A DNA stretch of 64,000 nucleotides from Dehalococcoidia bacterium (GCA_963666265.2 CAXXHW010000006.1:822325-886324); one strand, 5' to 3'. Positions 6,396 through 52,092 are shown, counted from the stretch's first letter. Notes: generated by a model from the letters alone, not told the origin. Numbers and translations are program-made.

Positions 6396-7379
6396 CTACG
6401 CTCCCCGTAACTCTCGGCACATCTCGATGAACGCTGGCAGGACTTCTTGCCAGTCCCCTTCCACGCCGTACCGGGCCTCCTTGAACATGGTGCAGTCCTT
6501 GTCCTTATTGATGGCGACGATGGTCTTCGATCCGGAGCAGCCCGCCATATGCTGGCTGGCTCCGGAGATAGCCACCGATATGTACAGGTTCGGCGTGACA
6601 GTCTTGCCTGTAAGTCCCACCTGGAAGGAGTGCGGCAGCCATCCAGCGTCGCAGACGGCGCGGCTGGCACCCACGGCGCCGCCCAGGATCTTGGCCAGGT
6701 CCTCAAGCTGCTCGAAGGGCTCCGGCCCTCCAAGTCCTCGGCCTCCTGAGACCACCACAGGAGCATCCTCAAGCCGCATGCCGGTGGACTCCTCCTTCCG
6801 CACCTCAAGGACCTTGACCTTCAGGCTGCCTGGATCGATGGTTACGTCCAGTGGGGTGACCGATCCCGCCCGCGAGTCATCTCGTTCCAAGGGCTCAAAG
6901 GCTTTGGCCCTGACCGTCGCCACGCGCACATCGGTATTGGTCTCTGAAACGGCCAGAGCGTTTCCGCCGTACACCGGCTTGGTGGCGATGAGCCCTTTGC
7001 TGGGGTCCTGCTCGAGCTCGACGCAGTCCATCACCACCCCGGCCTTTAGCCGGAAGGCTAGCTTGGGCGCCAGGTCCTTCGTGGCGTCGGTATGGCCCAT
7101 CAGCACAACCTGCGGAGTGTCAGCCTCAATCGCGTGCTGCAGAAGCTGAAGATAAGCGTCCGGCTGGTAACCGGCCATCTCCCCATCCTCATAGGTGTAG
7201 ACCTTGTCGGCCCCAAAGGCTACCAGCTCTTTGGCCACCGCCTCTGTGCCCTTCCCAATAACAACGGCTGAGACGCCGCCGCCCAACCGGGTCCCGACGC
7301 CCAGGGACTCTTTGGCCGCAGCCGTTAGTTTACCGTTGTTCACTTCGGCAAAGACAAGGACTCCTTGAGAATCTGCCAT
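6396..7379 (-). CDS. etfA: Electron transfer flavoprotein alpha subunit
   Basis: VVSGGRG, GASRA, QVGLTGKTV, ISGASQH, AINKD motifs. Confidence 0.95.
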   Translation of the reverse strand: MADSQGVLVFAEVNNGKLTAAAKESLGVGTRLGGGVSAVVIGKGTEAVAKELVAFGADKVYTYEDGEMAGYQPDAYLQLLQHAIEADTPQVVLMGHTDATKDLAPKLAFRLKAGVVMDCVELEQDPSKGLIATKPVYGGNALAVSETNTDVRVATVRAKAFEPLERDDSRAGSVTPLDVTIDPGSLKVKVLEVRKEESTGMRLEDAPVVVSGGRGLGGPEPFEQLEDLAKILGGAVGASRAVCDAGWLPHSFQVGLTGKTVTPNLYISVAISGASQHMAGCSGSKTIVAINKDKDCTMFKEARYGVEGDWQEVLPAFIEMCRELRGA

Positions 7380-7415
7380 GAATCCGGGTCTCCTTTCGCC
7401 TCGAAGGCTCCTTGG

Positions 7416-8216
7416 TTAGATCAGCTTGTCTTCTCGAAGCTTCAGGGCCAACTTACGACCGGCGTCGGCGCCATTGTCACCTTCGATGAACTCGCATTCC
7501 TTTTCAGTCGTGGGGATGAACAGCCTGGTCATATGAATTCGCCGGCCCGCCGCACCTAACATCGCGGGGTCGGCTCCGATGTCCGCCGGCCCCCAAACCG
7601 TAGGCTGCTTGCGGCTGGCCTGCATGATCCCTCTCAGCGTCGGGTAGCGGGGCTCACCGAGCTCGTTGCTGACGGTCACCAGCGCGGGTAGCGGGGCCTC
7701 GACCAGCTCGGTGCCGTCCGTCCGCACACGCTCCACCAGCACCTTACCGTCCTTGATGGCCACGCTCTTGCCGATGGTTATACACGGCACCCCCAGCATA
7801 TCGGCAACGCCGGGTCCCACCAGGCTACGGTCCGTGTCCGAGGCCTGTCGGCCGCAGATGATCAGATCAAAATCGCCGACCTTTTTGACGGCCATGGCCA
7901 GGGCATAGGCGGTCGAGTAGGCATCGCCGTCCTCGAAGGCGTCATCCTGGAGAAGGATCAGCTCGTCAGCGCCCATGGAAAGGGGCTTCTTGATCACGTC
8001 CATGACCAGACCTTTACCCATGCTGATAACCGTTACCGTGGCATCGTGCTGCTCCTTCAGCTGCAACGCCGCCTCGGTGGCCTGCTCATCGAAGCCGTTG
8101 ACTACGGGGGGGATCCCGGGCACCGGTACCACCTTGATAGCGGCCTCGTCTATCTTGAAGCTCGCCTGGGGGGTCTCAGGGTCCATCACCTGCTTGACAA
8201 AAACGATGATCCTCAT
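7416..8216 (-). CDS. etfB: Electron transfer flavoprotein beta subunit
   Basis: MRIIVFVKQV start (ATG 8216), CGRQASD, EPRYP motifs; adjacent to etfA. Confidence 0.95.
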   Translation of the reverse strand: MRIIVFVKQVMDPETPQASFKIDEAAIKVVPVPGIPPVVNGFDEQATEAALQLKEQHDATVTVISMGKGLVMDVIKKPLSMGADELILLQDDAFEDGDAYSTAYALAMAVKKVGDFDLIICGRQASDTDRSLVGPGVADMLGVPCITIGKSVAIKDGKVLVERVRTDGTELVEAPLPALVTVSNELGEPRYPTLRGIMQASRKQPTVWGPADIGADPAMLGAAGRRIHMTRLFIPTTEKECEFIEGDNGADAGRKLALKLREDKLI

Positions 8217-8351: not shown

Positions 8352-8765
8352 CTACCGGTCATAGACCATAAATTCTAGCAGGTTTCCGTCTGGGTCTCGG
8401 ATGTACACGCTTTGGGAAGGTACAGCACCGGCGCCTCTCCCACCCCGCCGTTGGACCGGCCCCTCCAGGACCTGCACCCCTGCCCCTTTGAGCATTTCAA
8501 CTACCTGGTCGACGGTCCCCTCCCAGACGAAGCAGAGATCGCCGCAGCCTGGCTCGGCGCTCTCTCCTCTAAGGTTTGCTACAAGGCCGGCCGGGTGGAC
8601 ATTGATAATGTTGTTGGGCCCCACCTGGACCATGAAGATGGCACTCTTGCCCTGCCGCCATTCCTCTTCCTTCAGGAATCTGAAGCCGATACGCTTGTAG
8701 AATTCCAGGAACCGCTCAGAGTCTGCGGTCGGTATGGCCACGTGGTCGAAGCTTATTACAGGCAT
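8352..8765 (-). CDS. VOC/glyoxalase family protein
   Basis: FDHVAI, GCGDLCF, SVYIRDPDGNLLEF. Confidence 0.9.
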   Translation of the reverse strand: MPVISFDHVAIPTADSERFLEFYKRIGFRFLKEEEWRQGKSAIFMVQVGPNNIINVHPAGLVANLRGESAEPGCGDLCFVWEGTVDQVVEMLKGAGVQVLEGPVQRRGGRGAGAVPSQSVYIRDPDGNLLEFMVYDR

Positions 8766-8804: not shown

Positions 8805-9758
8805 CTATCCTGCAAACGCCGGCATCACCTTGGCGGCGAACCACTCCATGTGGCGCATCAGATCGCTGGGCTTTTCCCAATTGAACCGGATGTACAGGTG
8901 ACTGAATCCGGCGTCTCGCTGCCGTTCAATAGCCTCGATCACGGCCTCCGCCTCGTACGGCAACCCCTCCGAGAGGCTTCGCACGTTAGCATGGTGCGTC
9001 CGGTCCGTCGTGGTCGTAAATGGGGTGGACACCTCCCGGTCCCCAACCTCCAAGCTGTGAGAGAACCTGAACCGGTCAGGGTCTCGTCCCAGGGCCTCCA
9101 GCTGCTCCTTAATCCACGCGACCTTCCCCGGCAGGTCTTCCTGGTTACTGGCCATGGGCACCACCCAGCCGTCGCCGAGCTCGACAGCCCTACGCAAGGC
9201 CCGCGGGCTTTCGCCACCGATCCAGATGGGAAGGTGCGGCTTTTGCAGGCACTTTGGCAGGAAGCCCACGTTGGAGAAGGTCGCGTATTTCCCTCGGAAG
9301 GCGGGCTCCTCTTCAGTCCACAGGACCTTCATCGCCCTGACATACTCATCGGTCAAGGCCCCTCGCTCCTTGAAGGGAATGCCGAGAATGCTGAACTCCT
9401 CGGGAAGCCACCCGGTACCAACCCCGCATATTATCCGACCGCCGGAGACCACATCCAACGTCGCCAGCATCTTGGCCGTCTGAACCGGTGGCCTGTACGG
9501 GACTACCAGTGTGTAGAAGATGAGCTTGATGCGCCTGGTGACGGTGGCGAGGTAGGAGGCCAGCACAAAGTTGTCGTACCAGAGAGCCCCCGGTGAAGGT
9601 CCGCCGGGCCGCCCCGGCATGACGATATGCTCTGTTAAATTTATCCCGAAAAAGCCAAGCTCGTCCGCTAAGCGGGCAGCCTCCCCCATCGCCTCAACGC
9701 CACCCCATCGGGAATGGGGTGAGAGTCTGAACAAGGTAAAGTCCAGTTGCTTATCCAT
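8805..9758 (-). CDS. Luciferase-like (LLM) flavin/F420-dependent oxidoreductase
   Basis: EHIV, AKMLATLDVVSGGR, GVGTGW..EEF, PIWIGG; start placed at MDKQLDF. Confidence 0.9.
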   Translation of the reverse strand: MDKQLDFTLFRLSPHSRWGGVEAMGEAARLADELGFFGINLTEHIVMPGRPGGPSPGALWYDNFVLASYLATVTRRIKLIFYTLVVPYRPPVQTAKMLATLDVVSGGRIICGVGTGWLPEEFSILGIPFKERGALTDEYVRAMKVLWTEEEPAFRGKYATFSNVGFLPKCLQKPHLPIWIGGESPRALRRAVELGDGWVVPMASNQEDLPGKVAWIKEQLEALGRDPDRFRFSHSLEVGDREVSTPFTTTTDRTHHANVRSLSEGLPYEAEAVIEAIERQRDAGFSHLYIRFNWEKPSDLMRHMEWFAAKVMPAFAG

Positions 9759-9913
9759 GAACGTGGCCTCGTTCTCGGCTGCTTCCGCCCATGCCGCAGC
9801 GCCGCCATTTACACAAGTCCTACGGGCGTTTAGGAAGTATGGTAGCATGTCAGCCTGAAAAGGTGGGTACTGACAACATCCCATTGCCCTCACCGCCGAA
9901 AAGTCAGGAGCAG

Positions 9914-10426
9914 ATGGTCGATACATGGGTCGCGGTCGTCGCCGCATCAGCCGTCGGAGGAGCCGGGATCGCCGGCGCTATCCTCATGGCGATTCTTCTG
10001 AACGGCTGGGCAAGAGACCGTGAGGAGGCCCTCTGGTACCGGCAGCGAGAGGCGGAGCGCGAGGAGCGGATACAGACCGAGCGGATGAGGGAGATCTCCC
10101 GTATGGAGGAGTTCCTGGACGCCGCCTCGAGGCATCTCGAGCTTGTTCACCTCGCAGAGTTTCTGCCCAATGGGAGCCAGCAGATCGACCACGTAGACGT
10201 GTACAGGCAACTGCTTCAAAGCCGTACCCGGGCCCAGACCTCGGCGCTCGCCCTGAGCATATCGCAGCAAACGCTCGACAAGTTCACCGAGCTGTTTGAC
10301 AACGCGAGAGCGCTTGCCCAAACCGCTCAAAACGGCAATACATCCGAGCCCTGGATAGTCCAGGCCGCCCTGGCGATTATCGGCGACATCCGACGCGACC
10401 TAATGGTTTTGAAAGGCACAGGCTAG
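9914..10426 (+). CDS. Hypothetical protein with N-terminal transmembrane helix and coiled segment
   Basis: AGGAG RBS before ATG 9914; hydrophobic N-terminus followed by a charged helical region. Confidence 0.65.
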   Translation: MVDTWVAVVAASAVGGAGIAGAILMAILLNGWARDREEALWYRQREAEREERIQTERMREISRMEEFLDAASRHLELVHLAEFLPNGSQQIDHVDVYRQLLQSRTRAQTSALALSISQQTLDKFTELFDNARALAQTAQNGNTSEPWIVQAALAIIGDIRRDLMVLKGTG

Positions 10427-10560
10427 CGTTTTGCGGCGGCCTGGCCAATCCGGAGTCCGGCCGCCAGCCCGTTTTCTCTCCAATCCCCTCTTGCCATCGC
10501 GTCCGGCGCGGCCCCCTCTCTGACTTCAGCGTTGTGGGCAATCCAATACTTACCTCTGTC

Positions 10561-11115
10561 TCATTCGTTGTCTCCCCACAGGGCTTTCCGTACACCCGGT
10601 GCCGCATGGCGGGCGCGAGCATGGATTTCCTCCATGGTTAGCGTGCTCAGCGGGTGCTCGATGACCACCGGTTCGAGGCGTTCCATTCCCAACGCGACAA
10701 CCTGTGACCGTGCCTCGTCTAAAAATGCCTCGGTGACAATGGCCGCCGTGGGCAGCCCCATTTCCTCCAGTACCGTTGCATCGTGCATACAGCACGAGGT
10801 GCACGAGCCTCAGTCTCCCACGGCTGTCAGGACGGCGTCATTTTCCTGTGCGATCTGCCGGATCAAGTCTGGGGCCGCGTTTTTCGAAAACGTCTCCTTC
10901 TTGTAATAGCGGACCTCGCCGATAGCGCCGCCACTTTCGAGCTCCGCAACCGTCGCTTGGAGGAGCTTGCGAGCATTCCACTTGGTGTTGTCCAGGACTC
11001 CGAGCCGGATGGCGCTCCCAGCCTCGAGCCGGGGGGCTATCGAGCGTGGCTCAGCCTCCACCACCCCTCTGGGGTCGTAGACGGTCCGCTCCCTTCGCGT
11101 TGCCCTGGTGCTCAT
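10561..11115 (-). CDS. UGSC-motif selenoprotein (in-frame UGA = Sec102)
   Basis: ORFs 10810-11166 and 10561-10788 share a frame and join through TGA at 10812-10810: VLTAVGD-U-GSCTSCCMHD; SECIS-like hairpin follows; selD present in the window. Confidence 0.88.
10777..10803 (-). promoter_or_regulatory. Bacterial SECIS-like hairpin of the UGSC gene
   Basis: TGCA-CC-TCGTGC-[TGTAT]-GCACGA-TGCA; apical loop starts 18 nt after the UGA with G at loop position 2. Confidence 0.7.
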
Positions 11116-11153
11116 CTCTTCCTCCGTATTGTTCGAGCTTCTTGGCCGTCCGC

Positions 11154-12251
11154 TCAAAGAGCGCACGTTCCATCCACGCAGACCGGTCCTGATGCCGGCG
11201 GCCTCCCGTCAATGGCCCGAATGACAGGACTTGTCATGTGCCCCCAGCCGGGGATGAACGCTGAAAAGCGGCCCGCCTCCCCGCCAGCTACGAATAAGTG
11301 GATCTCGTTAGGACTGGGAACGATGGGGGTTCGGGACTCGGGTGCTCGTCCATACCATCGGGGCAGGTTGCGGTTGTAGACGGTGCCATAGCGATGGTTA
11401 AAGCTGACATCCGCGAAGGTATTCTTGGTGTTCATCCACAGATAGCTGCGTACATCGCTACGGGTCCAGCCCTTGGATGCGATGGTGGCGCCGTGCTCGG
11501 GCCCGATCACCACGACGCATGCCCCGCTGCTCACGGCGTTGTTGTGGGCAATGGTGCTCATGGCCGAGACGACGCTGTCCAGGACTCCTTCGGGGTCGTT
11601 GGCGATGTGGTTGGTCACGCTGTGAGGCGCTTCGGCCGCAATGGCGAAGACGGTGCTGTCCTCGGCCTCATACCCCTGTTCCACGTGGTAGGGGGCCCAG
11701 GGGCTGGCCTCCTCGTTCTCAGCGATGCAGTAGGTGTACTTGCTGGGATGGCCCAGGGTGCTCTTGTCGAGCTCGCCAGGACGGCCACCACCGACGTTCA
11801 GCAAAATCAGGCGCACCGCCCGGCCGATGGTCGCATTCGCCCTATTTCCGGAACCGAAAACGTTGGCGCCGGCGTTCATGCCAATCTCGTTCCGCACCGG
11901 GCCGTTGACCACAATCAGCGGACTTGCCATGTGGGTGGTGGCCTGGACGCCGTTCAGGTTAAAGGCCGGGCCGGAGAGGGCCAGCATCGCCGCTCGCACC
12001 ACCGGGGCGTACTCCGGCTTGCACCCGGCCATCACGATATTAACCGCGAGGACTTCCCGCGTGAGGTTTCCCCAGCGCGGCGGTACACGGCACTCGACCA
12101 GGTCGGGCTCGCCCCCCAGCGCCGCCAATACCGCCGAGGGCTTCTCGGGCGTGGGCGGAACGACGGGGAGCCCGTCGGAAAAGCCCTGCTCGTAGTACCA
12201 CTCGACCAGGTCTACGTCCTCAGCGACAGGCTGGGTGATTTTGGCTACCAT
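11154..12251 (-). CDS. Conserved uncharacterised partner of the UGSC protein (DGLPVVPPT / MAGCxPEY family)
   Basis: GGAGGAGG RBS before ATG 12251; SDGLPVVPPT, VMAGCKPEY, RANATIGRA, ENEEASPW motifs; C-terminal CVDGTC. Confidence 0.85.
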   Translation of the reverse strand: MVAKITQPVAEDVDLVEWYYEQGFSDGLPVVPPTPEKPSAVLAALGGEPDLVECRVPPRWGNLTREVLAVNIVMAGCKPEYAPVVRAAMLALSGPAFNLNGVQATTHMASPLIVVNGPVRNEIGMNAGANVFGSGNRANATIGRAVRLILLNVGGGRPGELDKSTLGHPSKYTYCIAENEEASPWAPYHVEQGYEAEDSTVFAIAAEAPHSVTNHIANDPEGVLDSVVSAMSTIAHNNAVSSGACVVVIGPEHGATIASKGWTRSDVRSYLWMNTKNTFADVSFNHRYGTVYNRNLPRWYGRAPESRTPIVPSPNEIHLFVAGGEAGRFSAFIPGWGHMTSPVIRAIDGRPPASGPVCVDGTCAL

Positions 12252-12300
12252 ATCCCTCCTCCGACCGCGTCCTCTCGTGGCGCGAACCCTTATTAAGTCC

Positions 12301-13095
12301 TTAGCCCCTCGGCCGATTGAGAAAGCCCTGTAAAAGGGAGACGGGCTCGCTCGTCCGATAAGCCTCCGCAAAGGACTCTATCCCTTTGTCGATGGCCTGC
12401 TCCAAAGGGAGGCGCTCCCACTCACGAATAAGCTCCTTCTGAAGCCGTATAGCCCTGGGCCCCGCTCTCAGGACCGCTGTCACCCATTCTTCTACGCTGG
12501 CGTCCAACTCTTGCCGGTCGACGACACGCTCGACCAGACCGGACCTCAGGGCCTCCCCCGCATCGATGACCCTGCCGGTGTACACCATCTCCCTGGCCTT
12601 GCCCCATCCGACCAGCCGAGGCAACAGCGCGGCCTCGACGACGGAGGGGAGCCCGACGGCTACCTCGGGCATGCCGAAGCGGGAATCCTCCGTCGCGACC
12701 CTCATGTCGCAGGCGGCGGCAACCTCCAGCCCTGCTCCCAAGCAATGCCCGCGGATTCGGGCGATGACCGGCACCGGAAGGGAACGCAGAGCCCCGCAGA
12801 CTCTATGAACGCCGGTGATGAACCTGACGGCTTCCTCGGGTGAGGCGATGCCGGCCAGCTCATTGATGTCGGCCCCCCCACAGAAGGCCCGGTCACCAGC
12901 GCCGGTCAGCACTACGACTCTTAGCCGTTCGTCGCTCCTCATGCCTTCGATGGTCCGCCAGAGCTGTTCGCTGAGGGGTGACCCCAGCACGTTGAGCTTG
13001 GCCTCGTGGTCTATGGTAATCCGAGCGACACGGCCAGCTTCGCCGCGGTCGTCAAGGTCAAGGTGGACCGTTGGACTGGTCGACACGGTATTCAC
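12301..13095 (-). CDS. Enoyl-CoA hydratase/isomerase (crotonase) family protein
   Basis: AFCGGADI, CLGAGLE, FGMPEVAVG. Confidence 0.92.
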   Translation of the reverse strand: MNTVSTSPTVHLDLDDRGEAGRVARITIDHEAKLNVLGSPLSEQLWRTIEGMRSDERLRVVVLTGAGDRAFCGGADINELAGIASPEEAVRFITGVHRVCGALRSLPVPVIARIRGHCLGAGLEVAAACDMRVATEDSRFGMPEVAVGLPSVVEAALLPRLVGWGKAREMVYTGRVIDAGEALRSGLVERVVDRQELDASVEEWVTAVLRAGPRAIRLQKELIREWERLPLEQAIDKGIESFAEAYRTSEPVSLLQGFLNRPRG

Positions 13096-13150
13096 TCCTG
13101 CATCTTAACGAAGGCACGTCTTGCAACGGCAGGTGCGAGTATAAACAGGG

Positions 13151-13293
13151 GCCAACAGGTGGTCAAACCGGTGTGCTCGTTGAGTACATATAAGACAGCG
13201 CGGGGGCGGAAGCAGGTCATGCGCTTGTCGCCGCAGTAGCTTCCTGCCTCCGCAGGCTTTCCAGACATCCAGATAACCGAAAGACCCTGGGGC
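13151..13293 (+). ncRNA. Candidate rod-shaped structured ncRNA (6S-like)
   Basis: Nested pairings GCC/GGC, CAG/CTG, GGTC/GACC, CGGT/ACCG, a central bubble, then 13200-13213 paired with 13239-13253; TATAAA at 13140-13145 upstream; strand not proven. Confidence 0.4.
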
Positions 13294-13387
13294 ACGGACA
13301 GCGAGGGCTTGACCCTGTGTCCGACCCGGCGATAGGGTGACTACCGGGCTGCCGGCCGATATGGCAGTGCAAGAAAGGGCGAGAGCG

Positions 13388-14005
13388 ATGAACCTGGCGC
13401 CCAAGGTGCTTTTTTTATGTCAGAACAGCGCGATGGCTGGGGCCGCGGTACGGTCCTTGCTGAAGAACGGCGCCTCCGCGACGCATGTAAAGACAATCAA
13501 ACAGGCCGTGAAGCAGTTGGAAGAGAGGCCGATAAGCCTATTACTGGTGGACATGCCTGAGGGCCGTGTGAGCAACGGCGGGGAGTGGACGCGATTGGCC
13601 CAGGAAGTTACCGTGCCGACAGTGGTACTCGCTCCGATAGCTTCCCGGCGTCCAGCGTGGCCGCGTGGCCCAGCCGCGTTCGTAGAGCTGAGCAAGCCCG
13701 TATCTTGGGAGCGGGTGCTTCGCGTCGTGGCAGACCTTCTGGAGGGGCGAGGCAGCAACGGCCGACCTGGCGTAAGACCCCTCAACACAGAGGTGGGAAG
13801 GAAGGGACTCAGCAGAAGAAAGACGCAGGTGCTCGGACTTGTGGTGGAAGGGCGACCCAACAAGAGCATCGCCGCCGAGATGGGGATCAGCGAGCCAACG
13901 GTGAAAAAGCATGTCCAGCGGATCATTGGCAAACTGAACGCTAGGGACCGCGTTCAGGCGGCGGTCATCGCCGTGCGTGAAGGGCTGGTAGGGGAGGCCG
14001 CCTAG
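13388..14005 (+). CDS. NarL/LuxR-family response regulator with atypical receiver domain
   Basis: C-terminal HTH NKSIAAEMGISEPTVKKHV..KL..RDRVQA; receiver LLVD...SKP; start uncertain (13361/13388). Confidence 0.85.
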   Translation: MNLAPKVLFLCQNSAMAGAAVRSLLKNGASATHVKTIKQAVKQLEERPISLLLVDMPEGRVSNGGEWTRLAQEVTVPTVVLAPIASRRPAWPRGPAAFVELSKPVSWERVLRVVADLLEGRGSNGRPGVRPLNTEVGRKGLSRRKTQVLGLVVEGRPNKSIAAEMGISEPTVKKHVQRIIGKLNARDRVQAAVIAVREGLVGEAA

Positions 14006-14379
14006 TCGCGGCTTTGGAACCGGCTCGGGTCCACCACGGCCCGCTCGTGAATCCCGTCGCCGATCTTCTTGTCCCCCGCGAAGGCCTGCACCTCAAAGAT
14101 GTAACGCCGTCCCTCAGTCCGGAGGAAGGTCGCCTTGACCCTCACCATGGTACCGACCGGCGCGGGGGCCAGGTGGCGCACGTCGACTCGAGCCCCCACA
14201 GAGCGCTCGGACGCGTCCTGATATTCCTGAAGCAGTAGCAAGCATGTGCGTTCCATAAAGCCGATCATAGTGGGGGTGGAAAGCATCTCCACGGGACCGA
14301 TGTGGGTCACACCCATGCCCGGCTCTGTCTTGAACTCTTCCTCGCGGGAGACTCCGGTCGGCGGCGGCTGAACGGGCAT
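14002..14379 (-). CDS. Hotdog-fold thioesterase (fluoroacetyl-CoA thioesterase FlK-like)
   Basis: LSTPTMIGFME, SVG..VDVRHLAPAPVG, GIHERAVVD. Confidence 0.88.
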   Translation of the reverse strand: MPVQPPPTGVSREEEFKTEPGMGVTHIGPVEMLSTPTMIGFMERTCLLLLQEYQDASERSVGARVDVRHLAPAPVGTMVRVKATFLRTEGRRYIFEVQAFAGDKKIGDGIHERAVVDPSRFQSRD

Positions 14380-39383: not shown

Positions 39384-40604
39384 TCAGCCGTGCCGCCCGC
39401 CGATCAGCTCGTTCAGCCGAGAGTTGTCCTCTCCCAAAAGGGGCGGCCGGCGGCGGATCTTCCAGCCTGCCTTGCTGAACCTGTACGGCTCGCCGGCATA
39501 GGTGTAGGAAGTGTTGTGCTCCGGGTGTTGGACCTCCTGGAAGAAGCCCCGATACTTCAGCTGCTCATCCTCAACGAGCTCGTCCGGGGCATTGAAGACC
39601 ATCCAGGTTAAACCCATCTTCTGGCCGATGGGACATATCTCCTCGACGGTCATTCTGGCAGCTACCTCGCCGATGGCCTCCATGATGCCCTCGAGGGGCG
39701 CCATGAATTGAGTCACCGCCTTCTCCTCGGTCAACCGTTTCAGGTCCTCGTCCCACGACGGCCTTGCTACTCCCTCTTCCTTGAGCCACTCCACCAACCT
39801 GCCCCAGTGGGTCGGATTGGTGAAGGTCATCTGGGGGATGAAGTACTTGCCGTCCTTGCAGCGGATAGACGTGTTCGCCGCACTCCCTCGGCTGGGCGCG
39901 ACCTTAGCGTCGAACTGGATCGGGAAGCTGGTGATAGAGCCGCGGTTCACGTAGGAGCAGGCCTCGTGGATCGACGTGTCGACCTGCTGCCCCTCACCCG
40001 ATATGTCCCGCCCCGCCAGCGCCATCAACGTCCCGACGAAGGACCAGTGCCCAGCCGCGAGGTAGGAGAGCTCGGCCTGCGCGGCCAGCGGGGGCGTCGA
40101 CGCGTCCGAATATCCACCCCCGGCGAGGATGCCGCCCATGGCCCAGTAGACGAGGTCAGACCCCTTCCAGTCCTTGAGCGGCCCCGTCTGGCCGAAAGGC
40201 GTCACCGAGGTCATGATCAGGCCGGGGTTTGTGGCGGATAGCTGATCGTAACCCAGGCCCAGGGTCTCCAGATAGCCGGGGCTGAAGTCCTCCAGGATGA
40301 TGTCCGCCTTCTGCGCCAGTCGTTTGAGTTTTCTTCGGTCGGCCTCCGCCGAAAGGTCCAGCGTGAGGCTCTCCTTGTTGGTGTTATAAGCCCAGAAGTA
40401 GAGGCTGCAGTTGGGATCGGGCTTGTCGTCCTTGAACGGCCCCCGATGGCGGGCGCCTGCGCCTTTCGGAGGCTCGATCTTGAGCACTCGCGCGCCCATA
40501 TCCGCGAGGAGCTGGCCGCAGTATTGGGTCCCTTCGTCCCCTAGCTCGAGCACCAAGAGGTCATCCAAACATTGCTCAGGTACGGTTGAGGTGCTTTTGG
40601 TCAT
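39384..40604 (-). CDS. CaiB/BaiF family CoA-transferase subunit
   Basis: CGQLLADMGA.V.KIEP, NTNKES.TLDL, TPFGQTGP, GEGQQVD.S, PLLGED. Confidence 0.9.
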   Translation of the reverse strand: MTKSTSTVPEQCLDDLLVLELGDEGTQYCGQLLADMGARVLKIEPPKGAGARHRGPFKDDKPDPNCSLYFWAYNTNKESLTLDLSAEADRRKLKRLAQKADIILEDFSPGYLETLGLGYDQLSATNPGLIMTSVTPFGQTGPLKDWKGSDLVYWAMGGILAGGGYSDASTPPLAAQAELSYLAAGHWSFVGTLMALAGRDISGEGQQVDTSIHEACSYVNRGSITSFPIQFDAKVAPSRGSAANTSIRCKDGKYFIPQMTFTNPTHWGRLVEWLKEEGVARPSWDEDLKRLTEEKAVTQFMAPLEGIMEAIGEVAARMTVEEICPIGQKMGLTWMVFNAPDELVEDEQLKYRGFFQEVQHPEHNTSYTYAGEPYRFSKAGWKIRRRPPLLGEDNSRLNELIGGRHG

Positions 40605-40605
40605 C

Positions 40606-41823
40606 TTAGACACCTCCCGCCACGCCACTGCGTTCGGGGAACCGGATGACCCCGTCCGCCGCAAGGGCGTCAATGTCGGCGTTGGAAAGGCCAAGCAGGG
40701 TGTGCAGGACATACGCGTTGTCCTGGCCGATGTTAGGGATGCCGCGCTTGGGCTGATGGGGCGTCTTCAATAGCCGGGGAACCGAGATCTTATGCCGTCC
40801 AGGTCCTCGGTCCGGGTTCGGGTAGAGATGGAAGGTCCCCCGATGGGCCAGCTGGACGTCGAACTCCGCCAGATCGAAGGCCGACTCCACAGGCCCGGCG
40901 GGAACGCCGTGATCTTGAAGGACAGCGGCGAGATGGAACCGTTCAAAGGTCCTGGTCCACTCGGCCAGTAATCCCTCCAGCTCCCGGCGGTGCTTGAAGC
41001 GACCCTCGGCCGAGTCATACTTTGGGTCCGCGGCCGACGAGGCGTTGCCCATGGCCTCTTTCAGGCCCTCCCACTCCTCGTCCCTGGTCACCGCGATCAC
41101 GCACCAGGTGTCGTTGCCCCGGCAGGGGAAGGCGTTGTGCGGCGCGGATGGCGGGTACTCGCGGGTGTTTCCCGCCGGGAAGCCCTCCCGGCGGGCGCTC
41201 CGTCCGTTTACGGAGCGGTCCAGGTGGAAGTGCCGCGTGAAGGTCGCCGCCACCTGGGTCTGGGCCATGTCAATGTGCATGCCTTCCCCGGTGCGTCGGC
41301 GGTGGTGCAAGGCCATGAGTATGGCGCTGGCGGCCAGCCACGGCGGGCTTTCGTCGGCGTACGCGACGGGCAAGCCGCAGGGTGGAAGGTCCGGCATCCC
41401 GCCGAGAAAGGCCAGCCCGCTGTGGGCCGCGGAAGAAGCCCCATATGACCCCCAGTCCCTGTGCGGCCCGTCCTGGCCCCAGCCTGACATCGAGAGATAG
41501 ATGATGTTCGGCTTCACGGCACGAACAGTCTCATAGTCAAGCCCCAGGTTGCCGATGGTGCCGGGCCGCATGCTCTCGGTGAAGATGTCCGAGCTCGCCA
41601 CCACGCGCTTCGCTAAGTCCAGCGCCTTCGGGTGCCGCATGTTCAGGGAAAGGCTGAGCTTGTCGCAATTCCAGTGGATCTCGCGGCCCGAATCGAACGC
41701 GGGAGGGTCCGGCCACTCGAGCCGGATCGACTCGGCGCCGAATCCTGCCAGGATACGCGTCGCTGCCGAGCCTGCTACCATCCTGGAAAAATCCGTTATT
41801 CGGATGCCCTTTAATGGTTCCAC
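40606..41823 (-). CDS. CaiB/BaiF family CoA-transferase subunit
   Basis: PLKGIRITDFS, RPG...LGLDY, SGWGQDGP, AYAD, RRRTGEG.HID. Confidence 0.9.
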   Translation of the reverse strand: MEPLKGIRITDFSRMVAGSAATRILAGFGAESIRLEWPDPPAFDSGREIHWNCDKLSLSLNMRHPKALDLAKRVVASSDIFTESMRPGTIGNLGLDYETVRAVKPNIIYLSMSGWGQDGPHRDWGSYGASSAAHSGLAFLGGMPDLPPCGLPVAYADESPPWLAASAILMALHHRRRTGEGMHIDMAQTQVAATFTRHFHLDRSVNGRSARREGFPAGNTREYPPSAPHNAFPCRGNDTWCVIAVTRDEEWEGLKEAMGNASSAADPKYDSAEGRFKHRRELEGLLAEWTRTFERFHLAAVLQDHGVPAGPVESAFDLAEFDVQLAHRGTFHLYPNPDRGPGRHKISVPRLLKTPHQPKRGIPNIGQDNAYVLHTLLGLSNADIDALAADGVIRFPERSGVAGGV

Positions 41824-51039: not shown

Positions 51040-52092
51040 CTAGTTCACAACGTGTACATTTCCCCTACCGTCCGCCACAATCTCGCCGACTACGGCGGCA
51101 TGCCCCACCCCTTGCCGGCCAAGGGCCTCCATCAGCCGTCCGGCTTGGGCCTGCGGAGTGGAAAGGAGCAGTCCCCCGGAAGTCTGTGGGTCATAAAGGA
51201 TACGATGTGCCAGAGGGTGAATGCCCTTGTCCCAGGTCACGCCGTGGTCATGGTAGGTACGGTTGCGTTGCATCCCACTGGGGAATATCTCGCGTTCGGT
51301 GGCCAGGTCCCAGGCGCCGGCCATCTGCGGGACCTGGGCGTAGTAGATACGCGCGCTGGCGCCGCTGGCCTCAAGCATGGTCCTCAAATGGCCGAGAAAC
51401 GCGTACCCGGTGATGTCAGTGCAGGCGTTGATGTCGACCTCCCGGCCGGCCTGGGAGGCTGCCGCGTTGAGGGTCGCCATGTGTTGGATAGCCGCCTGGA
51501 GCACGGCGTCCTCGGCCTCACCACGCTTGCCGGCGGTGGTGATGATGCCAGAACCCAGAGGCTTGGTCAAAATCAGGGCGTCGCCGGGTTGAGCCCCTGC
51601 GTTGCTCCACTGTTCACCTGGCTTTACCACTCCGGTGATCGCCATGCCGTACTTGGGCTCGTGATCGTCGATGGTGTGGCCGCCTACGATCGGCATCCCG
51701 GCCTCCATGGCCTTGTCCGCCCCGCCCTTCAGAATCTCGTTGAGAGCGCTCCTGGGCTGATCGCTCGGAAAAGCCACGATGTTCAGACCGATGAGGGGCT
51801 TGGCTCCCATGGCATACACGTCACTGAGGGCGTTGGCCGCGGAGACGCTGCCAAACTGATACGGGTCGTCCACTACCGGAGGAAAGAAGTCCACCGTTTG
51901 CACCAGAGCGAGATCGTCGCTCATCCGGTACACCGCGGCGTCGTCACCCGTGCTGATCCCCACCAAAACGTTGGGGTCAACGATGGTCGGCAAATGCCTC
52001 CGGAGGTCGTTCAGGTCACCCGGACCGTACTTGGCAGCTCAGCCTCCGGATTTTGCCAAGGTGGTCAGCTTTACCTGTTCACCGGCTGGCAT
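51040..52092 (-). CDS. selD: Selenide, water dikinase (selenophosphate synthetase), Sec at codon 18
   Basis: GAGGAAGG RBS + ATG 52092: MPAGEQVKLTTLAKSGG-U-AAKYGPGDL in frame with the 51993 ORF; DDAAVY, TVDFF, ANALSDVYAMG, GGHT, TDITG, DPQTSGGLL. Confidence 0.95.

Follow-up and report, generated by a model that had tools for sequence, protein, structure and literature searches.

A UGSC-family selenoprotein and its partner protein D as a probable two-subunit redox system in a Dehalococcoidia bacterium

We analysed a stretch of 64,000 nt (the window) from the Dehalococcoidia bacterium GCA_963666265.2 (CAXXHW010000006.1:822325-886324), the genome of which comprises 3.18 Mb. The window carries a gene for a selenoprotein of the UGSC family (U; 10561..11115, minus strand; 184 codons and a TGA stop; PF24696, NF041046), which follows a gene for a 365-aa protein (D; 11154..12251, minus strand; no Pfam or NCBIfam model) that we regard as its partner. 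Based on comparative sequence analysis, D and U are a true pair, i.e., two parts of one system, and it is probable that each supplies one subunit of a single uncharacterised two-subunit thiol/selenol redox enzyme driven by a thioredoxin-type donor. A previous reading of the window from its sequence alone (the sequence-only reading) had already placed D and U in one system; this claim was sustained by the gene neighbourhood (65/67 orthologous loci), ten pairs in the home genome, fusions in both orders, a model of a natural fusion and a weak pass in a test of complex formation. The thioredoxin-type electron relay was proposed because relatives of D are fused to redox domains.

Pairing and fusion of D and U

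A scan with one genome per species yielded 80 loci, 67 of which encode a D that is 66-82% identical to that of the window and are here called orthologous loci. Their record titles name Nitrospinota, Dehalococcoidia/Chloroflexota, Dormibacterota, Rokubacteria, Acidobacteria, Alpha- and Betaproteobacteria, Eremiobacterota and Mycobacterium. U lay directly after D on the same strand in all but two of these loci, and in those two less than 400 nt of sequence remains past D. The home genome itself encodes 12 D genes, one of which is split over two frames, and 11 U genes with one TGA each; together they form 10 adjacent D/U pairs, in which either gene may come first. The split D paralogue (G000:C4:819498-820321; locus L102) shows a frameshift or an assembly error, and an intact UGSC gene adjoins it.

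Natural fusions joined the same two proteins in one chain. Ten long representatives of the D family were scanned with Pfam. A full UGSC domain was joined to D in three of them (P0153, P0166 and P0167), and the piece of UGSC that follows the selenocysteine (Sec) was joined to D in a fourth (P0141). In two others, D was joined to the N-terminal half of UGSC, which breaks off at the Sec position (P0127, which ends in '...AIGD', and P0142). Additional redox domains were found in P0228, which combines a UGSC piece, D and the beta domain of ferredoxin:thioredoxin reductase (FTR; FeThRed_B), and in P0207, in which D is joined to a pyridine-nucleotide-disulfide oxidoreductase (Pyr_redox_2). The last two (P0134, a tandem D-D protein, and P0179) showed no Pfam family. 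When 21 N-terminally extended forms of D were aligned, the extension was a UGSC-like domain in 14, a domain with a C-x-x-C motif in six and another domain in one. Judged by eye, the C-x-x-C domain of the six relatives appears to be thioredoxin-like. D relatives with this domain share a linker motif, P-G-C-G-S/A, which resembles the U-G-S of UGSC (P0170, P0177, P0205, P0230, P0231 and P0234; loci L083, L084, L090-L094 and L096).

The AlphaFold2 model of the natural U-D fusion P0153 reached a mean predicted local distance difference test score (pLDDT) of 86.3 and, despite a disordered linker, a predicted TM-score (pTM) of 0.88; therefore, its two domains are confidently placed. The halves of P0153 were also modelled as separate chains without alignments. 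The complex score was 0.58 (runs 0.57-0.59) and that of the best control was 0.01; the runs agreed in at least 90% of contacts, the partner pLDDT was 86, and the verdict of the test was 'weak support'. The mark used in this test was attained by 51/78 solved complexes and 2/108 mismatched pairs, and a score no higher than 0.60 was rare among the solved complexes (only 5 of the 78), and each of the 4 passing mismatches, out of 180, scored in this range.

The selenocysteine site of U and the features of D

U matched PF24696 with 180.4 bits (cut-off 25) over residues 12-179 and NF041046 with 148.6 bits (cut-off 125). With both cut-offs passed, the family motif present and Sec encoded by TGA, the U of the window is a full-length member of the UGSC family. 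The in-frame TGA (10810..10812, minus strand) is codon 102 and gives VGD-U-GSC when TGA is translated as U. Among the 65 orthologous U genes that lie beside D, this codon is TGA in 50 and a Cys codon in 14, and it is cut off by the contig end in one. A hairpin resembling a selenocysteine insertion sequence (SECIS) lies at 10780..10797 (minus strand), 16-33 nt after the U of UGA, with a stem of UCGUGC/GCACGA and a loop of UGUAU. The 6-bp stem and the GU-containing loop are kept in 50 distinct orthologous sequences, with compensatory stem changes in L036 (UCCUGC/GCAGGA) and L039 (UCAUGC/GCAUGA), and all 11 UGSC paralogues of the home genome share the hairpin with differing stem sequences. The home genome encodes tRNA-Sec, selA, selB and selD. 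The selD gene, which lies within the window (51145-52071, minus strand; G000:C6:873469-874395), contains one in-frame TGA and is itself Sec-encoded.

A plain table-11 list of open reading frames (ORFs) divides U at codon 102, as expected if the TGA were a true stop between two small unrelated ORFs (10810-11166 and 10561-10788). However, the PF24696 model spans both halves, a Cys codon takes the place of the TGA in the 14 orthologues, the hairpin 3' of the TGA covaries and the Sec machinery of the genome is complete; hence, we assign a negligible probability to a true stop. Because of the TGA and Cys codons of the orthologues, the covarying hairpin and this machinery, the selenocysteine of U is, on sequence grounds, taken as real. 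Across 46 aligned U sequences, U/C102, G103, C105 and Phe131 were invariant.

The UGSC-containing protein was described by Zhang and Gladyshev in 2008 (PMC2398784) as an abundant aquatic selenoprotein of unknown function, and the available sections of a 2026 review (PMC13188914), PMC9312934 and PMC1976440 likewise list UGSC as a selenoprotein of unknown function. The sequence-only reading, which knew of no function assigned to the pair, agrees with the available parts of these papers. Within the accessible text of the literature on UGSC, selenoproteins and thioredoxin and glycine reductases, no functional study of UGSC or its partner was found. The accessible part of PMC2398784 also mentions UGSC fused to a domain named 'Unknown_1' (Figure S1A), which may be D. 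The same paper, in the part available, guessed a thioredoxin-like fold for UGSC. Our analysis differs, as the U domain of the fusion model gave generic flavodoxin-like alpha/beta matches (azoreductase 4n65_B, TMt 0.43; lumazine synthase), and thioredoxin was absent among the structure matches shown for this domain. A sequence search of the Protein Data Bank returned nothing meaningful for either U or D.

We compared U with the selenoprotein B subunits of the glycine, sarcosine and betaine reductase (Grd; GrdB/F/H) and D-proline reductase (Prd; PrdB) systems. Hidden Markov models (HMMs) of GrdB and PrdB matched U weakly, with E 0.0027 and E 0.0054, respectively. In an hhalign comparison, the Sec of U was placed on that of a PrdB-like selenoprotein of the home genome with E 0.0015 and a probability of only 16%. 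PF07355 was not reported for U even at E<=10, and no solved GrdB or PrdB chain was recovered by the sequence search. GrdB/F/H, PrdB and U are alike in that a UxxC motif after a beta-strand is followed by a helix and a 'G-I/V-P-T' strand. The Grd/Prd systems and D-U are further alike as two-gene systems with a Sec subunit and a larger partner, which in Grd/Prd is the pyruvoyl proprotein GrdE or PrdA. Nevertheless, U (184 aa) is smaller than GrdB and PrdB (~240-430 aa), D shows no likeness to any Pfam family, Gly_reductase included, and the carriers of D-U include the aerobes Mycobacterium, Cupriavidus and Achromobacter, in which respect the pair also differs from Grd/Prd. GrdA, GrdC and GrdD were not seen near the D-U pair, for which no specific search was made. 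The resemblance of U to the Sec site of selenoprotein B subunits is suggestive, not proven. The PrdB-like selenoprotein of the home genome (L097:1273-2235, plus strand; G000:C4:386715-387677) has 320 aa and a T-U-PLC motif and scored 178 bits against TIGR04483, under the cut-off of 300; no PrdA-like gene was seen within the 3.4-kb locus.

The motifs of D were found as the sequence-only reading had written them: DGLPVVPPT (12150..12176; residues 26-34), which holds the invariant Asp26; MAGCKPEY (12009..12032; residues 74-81), in which Gly76 is invariant and Cys77 is kept in at least 90% of relatives; and the C-terminal CVDGTC (11163..11180; residues 358-363), which forms a C358-x4-C363 dithiol tail and is followed by AL and the stop, all on the minus strand. 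Six residues were invariant across 64 D sequences (Asp26, Gly76, Gly143, Arg144, Glu178 and Gly323). In pyruvoyl proproteins such as GrdE/PrdA, self-cleavage at a Cys yields the pyruvoyl group; in D, the Gly76-Cys77 pair is nearly invariant, with Cys77 replaced in P0069 and P0205. D gave no family match in Pfam (E<=0.01) or NCBIfam, and no Pfam family recurred among 64 D relatives at E<=5. The D family is very large: 5041 clusters at 50% identity matched at E<=1e-3, and in a second search at least 7999 of the best 8000 scored candidates were significant. The AlphaFold2 model of D reached pLDDT 94.3 and pTM 0.93, indicating a confidently predicted fold, for which the model gave no clear solved relative.

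Of the 66 scored members of the orthogroup, 63 carry the C-x4-C tail, and L075, for which the scoring was separate, carries it as well; in two of the three that lack it, the reading frame is broken ahead of the tail. It accompanies both Sec-type and Cys-type U. None of the 14 remoter relatives has it, nor does any of the other 11 D paralogues in the home genome. By its distribution, the tail appears to mark one orthogroup, i.e., it is a subfamily add-on and not a family-wide device for selenol recycling. Thus, the earlier idea that the C-terminal Cys pair recycles the selenol holds as far as conservation within the orthogroup is concerned and fails for the wider family.

Sec was also considered for D itself and rejected. 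Four D paralogues end at a possibly readable TGA (C6:219311, C6:358719, C2:80627 and C6:452654), and hairpin folding covered one of the four. The most suggestive TGA, which is followed by U-VAR-C, showed no SECIS-like hairpin, and the ribosome-binding site of the next gene follows it. The terminal TGAs of the D paralogues were read, from their sequence context, as plain stops.

Gene neighbourhood and the coenzyme A link

A crotonase gene (enoyl-CoA hydratase family, CoA being coenzyme A; 12301..13095, minus strand; GTG start, 264 aa) precedes D and matched NF004795 with 304.8 bits (cut-off 283) and PF00378 with 148.8 bits (cut-off 27; 2e-43). The gaps measured 49 nt from the crotonase to D and 38 nt from D to U on the minus strand, in keeping with the three co-oriented genes and gaps of about 40-50 nt of the sequence-only reading; GGAGG lies 8 nt ahead of the start codon of U. 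The sole promoter-like site detected, TTGACC-17-TATACT (13138..13166, minus strand), lies 43 nt upstream of the crotonase start, where 0.8 sites were expected by chance, and it is a weak candidate for a promoter of crotonase-D-U. No minus-strand terminator-like site was found between the three genes or after U; one inside D is probably spurious. The crotonase is probably co-transcribed with D and U in the home genome. In a metatranscriptome (run X20), a single exact 206-nt contig fell within the crotonase gene (12729-12934), and the remaining matches were short, 90-95% alike and probably from relatives. A second run that may be RNA (X24) gave no match.

A crotonase-domain gene was found directly upstream of D in only 2/67 other orthologous loci (L028 and L079, both Acidobacteria), where it encodes a FadB-type hydratase/dehydrogenase fusion; in L019, a crotonase lies 3.5 kb off on the opposite strand. 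The only other genome of the same bacterial family with this D orthologue has no adjacent crotonase. Judged by gene order, the crotonase is a local association and not a conserved member of the system, in which the sequence-only reading had included it.

We then counted the neighbours of the pair in 68 loci (window included). The commonest was a CoA-transferase of family III (21/68), followed by a LysR regulator (13/68), MaoC dehydratase (7/68), SelB (5/68) and a gene resembling thioredoxin reductase (TrxR-like; Pyr_redox_2; 4/68). In 18 of these 21, a full-length CoA-transferase gene lies downstream in the same orientation; 11 of the 18 are at most 140 nt from U or overlap it. With 117 CoA-transferase III domains over 3.18 Mb, the home genome has one roughly every 27 kb; many are tandem or double-domain, and this expansion of paralogues makes neighbourhood arguments with that family unsafe in the home genome. 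Adjacency to a CoA-transferase there was rejected as evidence, being at or below chance (3/11 loci). The frequency of a downstream same-strand CoA-transferase across loci (18/68) exceeded the few percent roughly expected for a next gene at the home-genome density; therefore, we kept the view that D-U may act on, or feed, carboxylic acid/CoA metabolism. The CoA-thioester link of the sequence-only reading survives in this looser form, as CoA-thioester enzymes recur near the pair across phyla, whereas the crotonase linkage itself does not. Beside other D/U loci of the home genome, CoA-transferases (not above chance), thiolase/DUF35, acyl-CoA synthetase and HMGL-like genes were found. Two CoA-transferase III copies lie in the window (~39423-40568 and 40717-41814, minus strand), and the match at G000:C4:572210-573312 has a mid-domain TGA, which could reflect a pseudogene, a frameshift or a Sec codon.

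The other neighbours named in the sequence-only reading were confirmed on the same strand, at least ~610 nt past the end of U: a luciferase-like monooxygenase (8805..9761; PF00296 at 5e-50), a VOC/glyoxalase-family protein (8352..8765; PF00903 at 1e-11) and the electron-transfer flavoprotein subunits etfB and etfA (6396..8213; PF01012 and PF00766). The distance from U to the monooxygenase is ~800 nt with a start at 9761 and ~610 nt with the long-ORF start at 9947. Also nearby are an FlK-like hotdog acyl-CoA thioesterase (14002..14379, minus strand; PF22636 at 7e-30), a second crotonase and a divergent LuxR-type regulator. The space of ~610 nt between U and the monooxygenase is taken up by a 211-codon ORF (9791-10426, plus strand), which has no Pfam family and failed the coding filter on codon composition; it is probably not a gene.

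Proposed mechanism, alternatives and distribution

In the mechanism that we propose, U would be a small flavodoxin-like alpha/beta protein with Sec102-x-x-Cys105 at a strand-to-helix turn, as in GrdB/PrdB, and D, as a substrate-binding or catalytic subunit, would provide a substrate pocket with the invariant Asp26, Arg144 and Glu178. The selenolate of U may attack a substrate bound to D or reduce an intermediate bound to D, whereupon a selenenylsulfide with Cys105 would form. Re-reduction could come from a thioredoxin-type donor, which, depending on the relative, may be free thioredoxin, a fused thioredoxin-like domain, a TrxR-like flavoprotein or an FTR-like Fe-S domain; in the orthogroup of the window, electrons may run through the C-x4-C tail of D itself. 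The selenoprotein B systems of Grd/Prd also take electrons from the thioredoxin system, and the terminal Cys pair of the D orthogroup is reminiscent of the redox-active tails at the C termini of mercuric reductase and large thioredoxin reductases. The fusions P0207 and P0228 link D relatives to TrxR and FTR relays; unlike those relays, the D and U of the window have no flavin or Fe-S domain, and the three-gene unit holds no reductase gene. The unpaired U of the home genome has a TrxR-like gene at a distance of 5 kb. The substrate is presumably a carboxylic acid, an amino-acid derivative or a CoA ester of one, and the product would be passed to CoA-transferase and hydratase enzymes. By analogy with the selenoprotein B systems, the reaction that we favour is one in which a small acid or an amino-acid derivative is reduced or reductively cleaved. 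That D and U form a complex in the home organism, which way the electrons flow and what chemistry takes place are inferred.

Several observations weigh against this reading. The home genome has two D loci without U and one U without D. Among remoter relatives, U was within the locus in only 6/14, and both U and a thioredoxin-like domain are missing from four Poribacteria loci. Some fused U domains lack both cysteines (P0173, P0204, P0229 and P0260), so that U can be non-redox. In D, at least 90% of members keep Cys77 and Cys175, and in some members these residues are replaced. The pass in the complex test was weak and came from the homologue P0153, the D part of which is 46% identical to the D of the window, and not from the window pair. 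A TrxR-like neighbour is rare in the orthogroup (4/68 loci), and the metatranscriptome X20 gave no D or U transcript and no contig bridging the two. Against the GrdB and PrdB families, U scored 16.7 bits for TIGR01917 (cut-off 602) and 16.2 bits for TIGR04483 (cut-off 300), i.e., far below the family cut-offs. CoA-transferases linked to D-U in other genomes share a median mutual identity of 35%, compared with a background of 30% among unrelated paralogues, and are therefore not one inherited cassette; in the home genome, a CoA-transferase was near 3/11 D/U loci, compared with ~5/11 expected by chance.

Other functions of the pair were weighed against the same evidence. D-U may serve redox maintenance of protein thiols or small molecules and not metabolism, acting as a peroxidase, a reductase of disulfides or persulfides, or a carrier of selenium or sulfur. 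The UxxC motif of U, the fusions to thioredoxin-like and TrxR-like domains and the automatic UniRef names of D ('thiol-disulfide oxidoreductase' and 'thioredoxin') fit this function, and the available parts of the surveys PMC2398784 and PMC13188914 place UGSC with selenoproteins resembling thiol oxidoreductases. We nevertheless consider it unlikely: the 6-19 diverged U copies per genome and the 12 D paralogues of the home genome (~40% identity to P0001) better fit diversification of substrates, the neighbours are catabolic enzymes and solute-binding proteins, and the invariant residues of D are Asp, Arg and Glu rather than Cys. It is also improbable that crotonase, D and U form a conserved pathway on a CoA thioester, with the C-terminal Cys pair of D as a general recycler of the selenol. 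The close, co-oriented genes with gaps of 49 and 38 nt, one promoter-like site upstream of the crotonase and no terminator-like site between them would suit such a pathway, as would the nearby FlK-like thioesterase, second crotonase and etfBA, and hydratase function does recur non-homologously (FadB-type in L028 and L079, MaoC in seven loci). However, a crotonase-domain gene directly upstream is confined to the 2/67 other loci, the other genome of the same bacterial family with the orthologue has no crotonase alongside, and the Cys pair is missing in 14/14 remoter relatives and in the 11 other D paralogues of the home genome.

The structure of D points to a further alternative, in which D is a distant relative of Fe-S hydro-lyases (class I fumarate hydratase, L-serine dehydratase) and acts as a hydratase or dehydratase for a dicarboxylate, and U is a redox activator, or a ligand or repair factor of a labile cluster, and not the catalytic nucleophile. 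The N-terminal domain or alpha subunit of class I fumarate hydratase (PF05681; 6mso, 7xky) came out as the best solved match to D with both of two independent models. With D on its own, Foldseek gave E 3.7e-4 with TM 0.23-0.26, and VIA-align 2 gave Z 4.3 (rmsd 5.6 over 198 residues), which falls under the level at which the notes of that program permit a fold claim; the M. jannaschii alpha subunit gave Z 4.1. The D part of the fusion model matched 7xky_A with E 6.5e-5 and probability 0.96, and Fe-S L-serine dehydratase was also matched (Z 2.9 and 2.7). HMGL-like, isocitrate-lyase-family and malate-synthase-like genes are among the neighbours of D-only loci. On the other side, a profile-profile comparison in hhalign (64 D sequences, 24 alpha subunits of fumarate hydratase) yielded a probability of 0.3% and E 0.18, the KGGGxEN and three-Cys signatures of fumarate hydratase have no counterpart among the conserved residues of D, D has just two near-conserved cysteines, neither of them invariant, and the TrxR-like and FTR-like fusions indicate dithiol/disulfide chemistry. 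We regard a hydro-lyase as quite improbable and retain a two-subunit thiol/selenol redox enzyme as the probable function of D and U.

UGSC genes were present in 14/14 genomes of the same bacterial family (G001-G014; 1.6-3.8 Mb), with 6-19 in each, and each listed match carries one TGA; among other families of the order or class, UGSC was found in only 2/11 genomes. In G001-G014, some UGSC genes lie in open frames of 575-615 aa, apparently as Sec-containing U-D fusions. The orthologue of the D of the window was seen in only 2/15 genomes of its own bacterial family, and the orthogroup is 66-82% identical across records, which suggests from sequence comparison that it has spread horizontally. In run X19, labelled as a sponge metagenome, pieces identical or near-identical to 10400-13300 of the window were found, suggesting a habitat in or near sponges for the organism or a strain close to it.

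With a defined partner, electron donors to which the fusions point, and cultured bacteria that carry natural Cys-type pairs, the pairing makes a directly testable enzyme out of an orphan family. New here are the number of UGSC genes per genome, the dithiol tail specific to one orthogroup and the test of the CoA link. The presence of 6-19 UGSC genes per genome in one bacterial family is an unusually heavy investment in a single selenoprotein family. As a tentative and speculative extension, D-U may be the founding pair of a large class of selenium-dependent reductases with carriers that include aerobes, in which U would be a shortened relative of selenoprotein B and D a substrate-specific subunit with a new fold and no kinship to the pyruvoyl proteins of Stickland reductases. 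Each of the 6-19 diverged pairs per genome would then reduce or cleave a different organic acid or amino-acid derivative, and the products would enter CoA-dependent catabolism. If this is true, selenium would rank as a key micronutrient that lets these bacteria degrade diverse dissolved organic matter.

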